Source: Amoebidium appalachense (Eukaryota; Protista; Ichthyosporea). Taken from it: 64,000 nucleotides of DNA. Where the stretch lies: NCBI GenBank assembly GCA_963693365.1, contig CAVNZM010000005.1, positions 4,595,167-4,659,166 of the forward strand, written 5' to 3'. Positions within the stretch are counted from its first letter, which is position 1. Each line of letters starts with the position of its first letter. Positions 20,801-38,035 of the stretch are shown in pieces. The notes beneath the pieces are model-generated. The model was not told where the DNA came from and ran no database searches. It saw only the letters and a program-made list of their open reading frames with translations. Both the position numbers and the translations under genes were made by a program.

Positions 20801-23800
20801 CTTGGGATGTCAAACTGGGGAAATTCCAGAATCGAGAACTCAAAATAGTTTGTGTTCGTGCCAACCAAAACTCTGATGCCATTTTCTACTTCGTGAGCCG
20901 GGATCTCAGGTGAAGATGGGAAGGGGGGGGGGGGGGGGGGGGGGGGGGAATGGATGCGAACCGGCTCAAGGGAGTCAATGCGCATGATTTGATGAATACC
21001 CGACCCATCATCCACCCTCGCATAGCGGCCAATGGTCCCTGAAGGAAAAGGGGGGGGGGGGGGGGGGGGGGGGGGGAGGAGAGAGAGAGAGGGGGGGGGG
21101 GGGGGGATCAGATTTCGCCCTCCCTGCCTTTTTTGCTGTTCTAGTCATGAGCAAAAGCACACACTGCACCCCACACACACCCACGTGTGCACCTTTCTGC
21201 TTTCCCGTCCACCCCATCACCCACACTCGACGTCATGCCTGAATGATCCCCTCCCCCCTCTCCCCCCACCCCCCCCTTCCGGCGCAGCTATGCTCTCACT
21301 CACCCATCCACCTGCACCACCCCCATGAGAATTAACCCTCACCTTGTCTTCCACACACCCCCTTTCTACTTAAAACCGTAATCCTATTTCTTGCAGGTTG
21401 TAAGGAGAAAGTTGCGGAAGAAAGGGGCGCAATGGGGAGGGTAGGTAGGCGAAACAGCATGTGTGTGTGTGTGTGTGTGTGTGTGTGTGTGTGTGTGTGT
21501 GTGTGTGTGTGTGTGTGTGTGTGTGTGTGTGTGTGTGTGTGTGTGTGTGCGTGTGTGCATGTGCGCACGATTATGAGAAGAATGTGTGAGTGTGAATGTG
21601 ACTGTGTGTGGGTGGGCGTGTGTTTCTGTGAGTTCGTGAGTAAGTCCGCAGGTGATTGATTGATTAGGTAGAGAAGAGGAGGGGGGAAGGGGGGGGGGGG
21701 GGGGGGGGGGGGGGGGGGAAGGGTGGGGGTGGGGGCGGGGGTGGGTGGGTGATGGAGGGGGGGGGGGGAGGGGGGGGGGAGGGGGGTTTGAATGCGTCAA
21801 AAAGTACGAAGTACACAAGAACAAACGGATAACACGATGCAGAATGCAAGCCATACATAAAGAGTATGCATAATAAGCAGAGCCCATCCTCAGGGGGGCC
21901 CCACGTCATCCACAGTACCCGAGGTTCGACCTATTCACCTTGTTAACGAAACCCAACTCAGATACTGTTTCACTTGAACATGGGTAGGTCACTCGTCTTG
22001 ATCAGAGACGAGCAGGGTTGCTTATGCAGGCAGGGGCAGTGGGAAAGGCCGGGGGTTAAAGTTGCAGCAGTAAGCAGAAGCAATAAAAATATAGATAGGA
22101 ACTCAGGAGACGGGGCTTCTAGGAAGCTCCCCCGTCGCTACCTAAGTCGATACTTCCCTGGCTAACATACTATACCAGCTGAAAAGAACTAAGTCCCGAA
22201 GGCCGCAGAATTCGCAATCAGAGGGGAAAATATGAGATTTGACCCACGCCGCAGGGTAGTTACATGCTTACGAGGGCGGAACTTTATCGTCTTCGAACGG
22301 AAAGCTATGCCCCCGGATGTCAGCCGGAAATATGGTATCACCCATTGCTTTGGGCTTGAAAAAAGCCAAATCGATAGTCCGAGTTATGTTACGCCGGCGG
22401 GTAACATGCCGCATGGGTTCCAAGGGAGCTGTCGCCAACAGAGCGGGTGTGTGCATGCGTGCCCGTAACACAATGTGTGATAGCTAGGAGAGGGGGTATG
22501 CAGAAGTGGAGATGAAGTGTGTGGAGAGATAAACAGTAGGAAGAAAAGTAGACACCAGTGTGTGCAACCCCGCACAACATACAAACACACACACACACAC
22601 ATAAATAAGCGAAGATTACAGGTAATCAACCAGAACAACAAATGACAAGTAAAACAACAGGTGCCAAAAAAAAAAAAAAAAAAAAAAAGAGAGAGAGAGA
22701 GAGAGAGAGAGAGAGAGAGAGAGAGAGAGAGAGAGAGAGAGAGAGAGACAGAGAGAGAGAGAGAGACAGAGACAGAGAGAGAGAGAGAGAGAGAGAGAGA
22801 GAGAGAGAGAGAGAGAGAGAGAGGGGGGGGGGGGGAGGGGGGGGGGGGGGGGGGGGGGGGTCATAGGGATGCTGCAGAATCGTCAGATATTAGACAAATC
22901 GCACCAATACGATCATTTTCTCATATATGAGAGAAGATTGTGACTAAAGATGTGCAGAGCTGGTTAAGACCTGTTGAGTGTGCAGAGAAAATGGGAGGGG
23001 AAGGAGGAGGGGAAGGGGGGGGGGGGGGGGGGGGGGGGGGGGGGGTGAGGAGTAAGAGAGGGGAGGGAATGTTAGAGTGTCAGTAGTCTCAGGGGACCCT
23101 GCAGAGTCGTTAGATATCAGACAAAAACGCACCAACGACCAAGTTCTCCAAGGGGAGAAATGCGTAAAACGTTCTGCAGAGTGGGTTAGAGACCTGCTGA
23201 TGAGAAGAGTGTATACAGGGTTTGGCCAGGGGGGGGGGGGGGGGGGGGAAGGGGGGGGGGAAGAAGGTAGGAGGGGAAGGGGGGAGGGGGGAGGGGGGAG
23301 GGGGGGGAGTAGGCCGGGGAAGGGCGAAGGGCGAAGGGAGGGGAGGGAGGGAGGGAGGAAGGGGGGGGGGGGGGGGGGGGGGGGGGGGAAGGGGAAAAAA
23401 AAAAAAAAGGGGGCGAAGGGAGGGGAGGGAGGGAGGGGGAAAGGGGGGGGGGGGGGATTGAATCAAAAAAAAAAAAAAAAAAAAAAACCTACAGTCGAAA
23501 AATTTGCCGTTGGGCTGAGTCTGCTGGTGCACGTGGTCCTTGGTGATGGAGATGTGCTGGCTGACATGAGATGATGACACAGTGCGGCTGGAAAGCTCAC
23601 GAAGAGCAGTGCTCACAGACCTATCCTCCCTGGAAAAAGATAATTCCCAGAGTTGGTTTTGAGGAAAATAAAGAAGCGCAAGAAAAAAACACCCTGTGCT
23701 GGTGTTAGTGGAGGATGCAACATAAGAAGAAAAACGGACACCGTAGGAGTGATCGCTTTGTGAATGTTAAGAAAAACGGACACCGTAGGAGTGATCGCTT

Positions 23801-38035: not shown

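Follow-up and report, generated by a model that had tools for sequence, protein, structure and literature searches.

Hammerhead ribozymes of types SGC and CSG are the closest described catalytic RNAs to the one considered here. According to the sections of Eckert et al. 2023 available to us (PMC10085705), these RNAs come from metatranscriptomes and metagenomes, type SGC is shown to cleave, and type CSG is known from two metagenomic sequences only. The same sections state that no known hammerhead alignment has more than 1 to 2 nt between CUGAnGA and its stems, and the blocks of the ribozyme are assumed to be uninterruptible. Cleavage rates of the SGC and CSG ribozymes are between 0.004 and 0.19 per minute. 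The closest described mobile elements are the Naiad and Chlamys clades of Penelope-like elements (PLEs). In the available portions of Craig et al. 2021 (PMC8557442), Naiads and most Chlamys elements are without a canonical hammerhead, eight "half cores" are flagged, and the labels used in Naiads are just "HHR_core" and "HHR_half_core"; PLEs without canonical hammerheads are said to proliferate well. Partial tandems and (C)n targeting are described there for the Naiad and Chlamys clades, with (C)n as a common target of Chlamys and a preference of Naiads for (TA)n.

The window (the whole 64-kb stretch of DNA analysed) is rich in introns and microsatellites and carries genes for a squalene epoxidase, a PP2C phosphatase, an Arp2/3 subunit, a chitinase and a cullin. 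For one protein encoded in the window, the closest non-identical homologues share 35 to 49% identity with it and come from a plant, fungi, animals and other eukaryotes; that the host is a unicellular opisthokont is a guess. On its minus strand are four copies of a repeat that share a core of about 165 nt. They fall into subfamilies A (A1 and A2) and B (B1 and B2), which have the core and a related 3' tail in common and differ in their leaders. A covariance model search found no further intact copy of the core in the window. The four copies, together with a truncated and a decayed one, are:

3558-3704, plus strand: decayed copy of type A that has lost an internal piece; within an intron of the gene for squalene epoxidase
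21788-22080+, minus strand: A1, subfamily A; core 21866-22027; 5' boundary provisional
27548-27996, minus strand: B1, the longest subfamily B copy (449 nt), with leader, putative ribozyme core (27655-27821) and tail to the C-run; in a putative intron of a minus-strand gene
28000-28122, minus strand: 5'-truncated B copy that begins with the 3' strand of stem I and runs through the 3' end; placed upstream of B1 as a head-to-tail tandem
31770-32062, minus strand: A2, subfamily A; flanked by two C-runs; core 31848-32009, with the cut predicted at 31937/31936; in a putative intron
36382-36799, minus strand: B2, subfamily B, leader-truncated; C-runs on both sides; core 36489-36655; predicted cut 36581/36580

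Sequence comparison revealed that the cores of B1 and B2 are identical, and therefore, the four copies amount to only three distinct rows and, in effect, two lineages. B1 and B2 differ at six positions, none of them in the core (P = 0.047). Seven of the eight differences between A1 and A2 are inside the core, and two of them break pairs (P = 0.065 for clustering). In the core of A1, A15.1 is changed to C and one pair of the internal hairpin is broken; from the A15.1 change, the A1 ribozyme is predicted to be impaired. B1, A2 and the decayed copy all are in putative introns and, judged by the splice signals, in sense orientation, but three out of three is not significant. The gene that hosts B1 and A2 in putative introns is a minus-strand multi-exon gene (24074-35333) with a long RS/RD-rich last exon; it had no Pfam match, and no homologue of its large exon was found among longer proteins. 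Directly upstream of A1, the segment 22093-22490 is non-repetitive, has open frames of 91 codons (plus strand) and 71 codons (minus strand) and may be a longer A1 leader or the remnant of a parent element. A Pfam search of the 400 nt upstream of A1 had no match, and the minus-strand frame was without a homologue. Two other repeats of the window are mentioned for completeness. The segments 22858-22978 and 23088-23212 are adjacent, diverged copies of about 125 nt beside G-runs (82 of 149 columns identical); their best Rfam E value was 0.02, far below gathering, and there is one double change in the consensus fold of either strand. The segment 7638-8022 is a tandem repeat with nested periods of about 60 to 125 nt.

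The cores of A2, B1 and B2 carry CUGAGGA, GAAAC and a GUU triplet as well as stems I, II and III. All catalytic nucleotides of a hammerhead (C3, U4, G5, A6, G8 and A9; G12, A13 and A14; the A15.1-U16.1 pair; and an H17 that is not G) are present in these three copies; A1 fails at A15.1. The blocks follow each other in the order S-G-C, and the stems cross, i.e., the wiring is non-nested. The stem II strand is located 0 to 1 nt after a hairpin, H5, and about 100 nt upstream of CUGAGGA, and the bases 3' of CUGAGGA pair with bases 5' of H5, forming a helix, P0, that is opened by a U-U pair. Hence, block C (CUGAnGA) is interrupted between A9 and G10.1 by two helices, P0 and H5. An uninterrupted block C, with a stem II strand 0 to 2 nt from A9, was not found: the covarying and stronger strand is the upstream one, although a weaker direct pairing is possible and leaves a small probability of such a block in B. 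From 5' to 3', the order is P0 strand, hairpin H5, stem II strand, tying helix, stem III-GUU-stem I, stem II-GAAA-stem III, tying helix, stem I-CUGAGGA and P0 strand. Stems I, II and III comprise 3 to 4, 5 to 6 and 9 to 13 pairs, with double changes in each, and the tying helix between the far ends of stems I and II has 6 to 7 pairs with one double change. With B1 as the model, the parts are:

27655-27821, minus strand: candidate split-core hammerhead of B1; passes the six-helix descriptor
27809-27819, minus strand: closing helix P0, 5' strand; 7 outer and 3 inner pairs
27785-27807, minus strand: hairpin H5, directly before G10.1
27779-27783, minus strand: stem II 5' strand; G10.1 at 27783; partner 27716-27720
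27771-27777, minus strand: 5' strand of the tying helix of stems I and II (the outer helix of the sequence-only reading); partner 27688-27694
27743-27756, minus strand: block S, with stem III strand, GUU, predicted cut 27747/27746 and stem I 5' strand
27730-27739, minus strand: 10-nt palindromic hairpin between the stem I and stem II strands
27704-27720, minus strand: block G, with stem II 3' strand, GAAA (G12 at 27715) and stem III strand
27661-27685, minus strand: 3' block, with stem I 3' strand, CUGAGGA (27681-27675), one U and P0 3' strand

The internal hairpins of B (27730-27739) and A2 (31922-31931) both are perfect 10-nt palindromes that differ in sequence; in B and A1, the H5 loop is a palindrome, too. 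The internal hairpin and the H5 loops are possible dimerization sites.

Judged from sequence, we put the probability at about 70% that the core is a self-cleaving hammerhead whose CUGAnGA is split from the stem II strand and that it resides in a probably non-autonomous Penelope-type retroelement. Hammerhead parts, in any order, arose in 2 and 4 of 20,000 shuffles. A six-helix descriptor, composed after the examples had been seen, passed only A2, B1 and B2 in the window and none of 100,000 shuffles (50,000 each of A2 and B1); none of the 517 public loci preselected for core words, as listed by looser scans, passed it, and a further run on the first 159 of them was negative as well. Exact-pattern scans of viral contigs and metagenome contigs found no relatives. 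With the Rfam models, the A2 core was hit by a partial hammerhead of 14.2 bits (E = 2; gathering score, 34) and the B1 core had no match. Given this sub-threshold score and the crossing stems, the core does not have the nested junction of the canonical types I to III. A search of the whole window with Rfam at E ≤ 1 gave 212 matches; among the 150 listed, almost all were low-complexity matches of the microRNA type and none was on the four cores. HDV-like ribozymes are recognized by a P2-P3-L3-P1 spacing and a catalytic C in J4/2. B does have a J4/2-like stretch, but A has a U there, the P3/L3 stretch is far too long and there was no Rfam match. HDV-like, twister, hairpin, SRP, RNase P, group I and snoRNA readings were all dropped because the spacing of their motifs was not matched.

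The sequence-only reading had claimed that compensatory changes between A and B point to selection on RNA structure. Indeed, every helix that it named is present on the minus strand, and 46 of the 48 pairs of A2 are kept in B1. With the pairs in register from the core, 38 are unchanged, 5 have changed on both sides, 3 have changed on one side and still pair, and 2, both at helix ends, are broken. The double changes announced for stem II (U-A to C-G), stem I (G-C to A-U) and the outer helix (U-G to A-U) are all seen between A2 and B1. Stem III has double changes from A-U to G-C and from A-U to U-A, but the form quoted for it is that of A2 only, since A1 carries the A15.1-to-C change. Likewise, the quoted internal hairpin is present in A2, but it offers just two in-register pairs between A and B, without covariation, and a pair is broken in A1. 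The 5' hairpin, listed as kept, is kept, but it is nearly invariant, as is the closing helix, and therefore, the four copies say nothing about either. The use of G-U wobbles as a strand signal holds as well: there are 2 to 4 G-U pairs per copy versus 0 to 1 A-C pairs, which favours the minus strand.

Eight of the 10 changed pairs keep pairing, which has a P value of 0.0005 to 0.003 under random substitution, a figure on the optimistic side, given that the placement of helix ends and of one bulge was done by eye. In a covariation control on the MAFFT alignment, the observed level was reached in 9 of 500 shuffles, and slid registers gave no double changes. RNAalifold without guidance recovered the nested helices, with double changes in 3 of 45 pairs. 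None of the 16 core positions differs between A2 and B1, compared to 29 of 104 surrounding columns (P = 0.003), and both ends of the core are invariant between A and B over 22 to 23 nt, more than pairing requires. Furthermore, none of nine listed variable places inside the B core among pieces of sequencing runs, some of which stem from A-type pieces, touches a core nucleotide. For the A type, variation was taken from A1, A2 and unphased loose-end rows only; in the latter, the stem II pair occurs with both its C-G and its U-A allele. Folding z-scores were weak (−0.49 for A2 and −2.39 for B1). The nested ensemble gave no weight to stems I and II, as a nested model cannot handle pseudoknots, and offered a rival hairpin around CUGAGGA. 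With two lineages, and with the structure derived from the same sequences, the comparison of A and B is modest evidence and suggestive at most.

Stronger support for selection on the fold comes from Naiad elements. We inspected by eye the last 170 to 600 nt of 26 of the 54 Naiad consensus sequences in the files of PMC8557442; records were named by means of the next header and of the order in File S1. We recognized the six-helix wiring again in 10 of the 26 3' ends (Bfor, Chem-3, Amil, Anas, Movir-2, Plae, Dst-4, Obim, Ovul and Esco), with Bfor (a stem I of two pairs) and Esco (an imperfect stem II) as weak cases. Since Anas duplicates Amil and Obim is close to Ovul, these are eight independent cases, and their hosts are from five animal phyla (ctenophores, cnidarians, an acanthocephalan, an ostracod and cephalopods). 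The stem sequences are unrelated, as seen in stem II of Dst-4 (GACGCC/GGCGUC), Plae (GGCCCC/GGGGCC) and Amil (GGCUCC/GGAGCC); in these three, stem II directly follows the hairpin and P0 directly follows A9. Across A2, B and the Naiad examples, the cleavage triplets are GUU, GUA, UUC, AUC and AUA. In three other Naiad ends, from nematode and spider (Naiad_Hpol, Naiad-3_Nbra and Naiad_Smim), an apparently intact CSG order was seen by eye, with a single U between A9 and G10.1 in Naiad_Smim. The fold was absent from 13 of the 26 Naiad ends within the portion inspected and from all 13 Chlamys ends inspected in the same way (13 of 49 records). In sum, the claim of selection on the RNA fold is supported, and with the core nucleotides and the U-H triplet kept and the wiring shared with Naiads, the hammerhead interpretation is the likely one.

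How much of this could be explained otherwise? One alternative, which we consider unlikely, is an ordinary type SGC ribozyme with a 2-nt insertion, in which the bases 3' of CUGAGGA-UG form stem II directly with the strand that precedes GAAA, the upstream strand being an inhibitory switch. Such a direct stem II can form, with six pairs in B (three of them G-U) and four in A, insertions of 1 to 2 nt are within the known range in the available sections of Eckert et al., and the segment 3' of CUGAGGA is invariant in A and B. However, the direct pairing is weaker than the upstream one (−3.9 versus −8.8 kcal/mol in A2 and −7.2 versus −10.0 kcal/mol in B1), and the double change in stem II between A and B fits the upstream helix only. 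Furthermore, in the inspected ends of Naiad-4_Dst, Naiad_Plae, Naiad_Amil and Naiad-3_Chem, the nucleotides that follow A9 have their partners upstream, in P0, and, by eye, are not complementary to the stem II strand. Still less probable, to a degree that we regard it as remote, is the absence of any structural selection, with helices that are inherited inverted repeats and double changes that are due to chance or to the choice of alignment. The two lineages, the use of the same sequences to derive the structure, the weak z-scores and the clustering of A1/A2 differences in the core (P = 0.065) are in line with it, but pair conservation, the shuffles and the descriptor results stand against chance helices, as does the same wiring in unrelated Naiad sequences.

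Of more weight, although still improbable, is a hammerhead-derived fold without the need to cut, to which the reverse transcriptase would bind or which would act as the nuclease-blocking knot that the sequence-only reading had named as its alternative. The templates of the genomic copies were either uncut or re-ligated, there is a copy, A1, whose core is broken, both ends of the core are more conserved than pairing demands, and the success of PLEs that lack canonical hammerheads, noted above from Craig et al., would be in keeping with a role other than cleavage. On the other hand, A2, B and the Naiad examples all retain CUGAnGA, GAAA, A15.1-U16.1 and a nucleotide other than G at the cleavage position, and this is the pattern of catalysis; a generic knot fails to explain why the core nucleotides of a hammerhead and its U-H cleavage triplet are retained. 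The split-core, self-cleaving hammerhead is the reading that we prefer.

The repeat itself has the features of a mobile element. B1 matched 4119 contig pieces in run X1 and 4553 in run X3, numbers that indicate a large heterogeneous family and are not a copy number. End-to-start joints with a short spacer and a G-run occur in both runs and match the tandem of the B fragment and B1. Run X11 gave 248 pieces, which have no bearing on expression, as the RNA nature of that run is merely guessed. In all five 3' ends, CAA(A) precedes a C-rich sequence, and five of six (C)n-type ends among the inspected Chlamys records finish in AA plus a C-run. At 27641, loose ends and joints suggest more subfamilies, with a B-type tail and another core (consensus agreement, about 0.5). 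Being short, non-coding and present in high copy number and in tandem, the repeat resembles retrozymes; with partial tandems, 5' truncation and a microsatellite target, it resembles Naiad and Chlamys elements. No open reading frame for a reverse transcriptase or a GIY-YIG endonuclease was found in 290 of the 338 filtered stop-free frames of the window. The high copy number, the C-run ends and the partial tandems argue that the repeat is probably a non-autonomous Penelope-type element.

In our model, the RNA is rod-shaped, has an apical and an internal loop and would bend at the bulge that separates stem III from the tying helix. The two loops would then dock through stems I and II; alternatively, it is imaginable that two molecules do so as a dimer. 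P0 and H5, placed between A9 and G10.1, would keep A9 beside stem II without a direct link. Cleavage is predicted 3' of GUU, and the distance from there to the 3' end is 167 nt in A and 199 nt in B. Tandem, read-through or host transcripts may thus be processed to RNA of unit length and possibly be re-ligated to a circle, and a Penelope-like reverse transcriptase acting in trans may prime on the G-run and copy the RNA into C/G runs. Since the cut site is uninterrupted in the genomic copies, the template must have been uncut or re-ligated.

If the core cuts, the assumption that hammerhead blocks are uninterruptible is broken, and non-circular permutations are present in eukaryotic genomes and not just in environmental sequence. 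We go further, with a confidence that only somewhat exceeds even odds, and propose from these sequences an active hammerhead order beyond the six thought possible, with a core that reaches across a two-helix junction at A9/G10.1; it would be the missing ribozyme of many Naiads and would serve a circular-RNA retroelement that targets C-runs in a probably non-animal eukaryote. That Naiads are reported to be without a canonical hammerhead while some keep "half cores" was a puzzle that now comes down to the question of a single gel. For such work, the window supplies two subfamilies that differ by compensatory changes and, as a ready-made control, A1, in which the core is naturally mutated. The fold escapes all standard descriptors and Rfam models, and therefore, the counts of eukaryotic hammerheads may be too low. 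No published description of this order of parts was found in open-licence PubMed Central papers and bioRxiv.

Compared with known systems, as far as the available parts of the respective papers go, the repeat combines features of three groups. Like non-LTR retrozymes (PMC7229834; bioRxiv 10.64898/2026.07.22.740005), it is about 290 to 450 nt long, non-coding, high-copy and hammerhead-bearing, occurs as monomers and tandems and is presumed to be mobilized by PLEs; unlike them, it has a predicted ribozyme that is non-nested, whereas theirs are type I hammerheads from animals (Cervera and de la Pena 2020; Li et al. 2026), and C-run targeting was not found for them in the available parts of these two sources. 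With Naiad, it shares the ribozyme wiring near the 3' end; with Naiad and Chlamys, the 5' truncation and the partial tandems; and with Chlamys, the (C)n target and a 3' end of AA plus a C-run. It differs from both in having no open reading frame for a reverse transcriptase or endonuclease in the frames examined in the window and in uniting a Naiad-like ribozyme with a Chlamys-like target. With types SGC and CSG, it has in common the cyclic S-G-C order, the crossing stems and, in A2 and B, all conserved core nucleotides, and its outer helix occupies the place of the tying helix "I" of type SGC, where it directly follows the stem II strand and directly precedes the stem I strand. In contrast to these types, its block C is interrupted, with P0 and H5 between A9 and G10.1, and the ends of its chain are in P0; and whereas theirs are environmental sequences, the repeat is present in high copy number in a eukaryotic genome.
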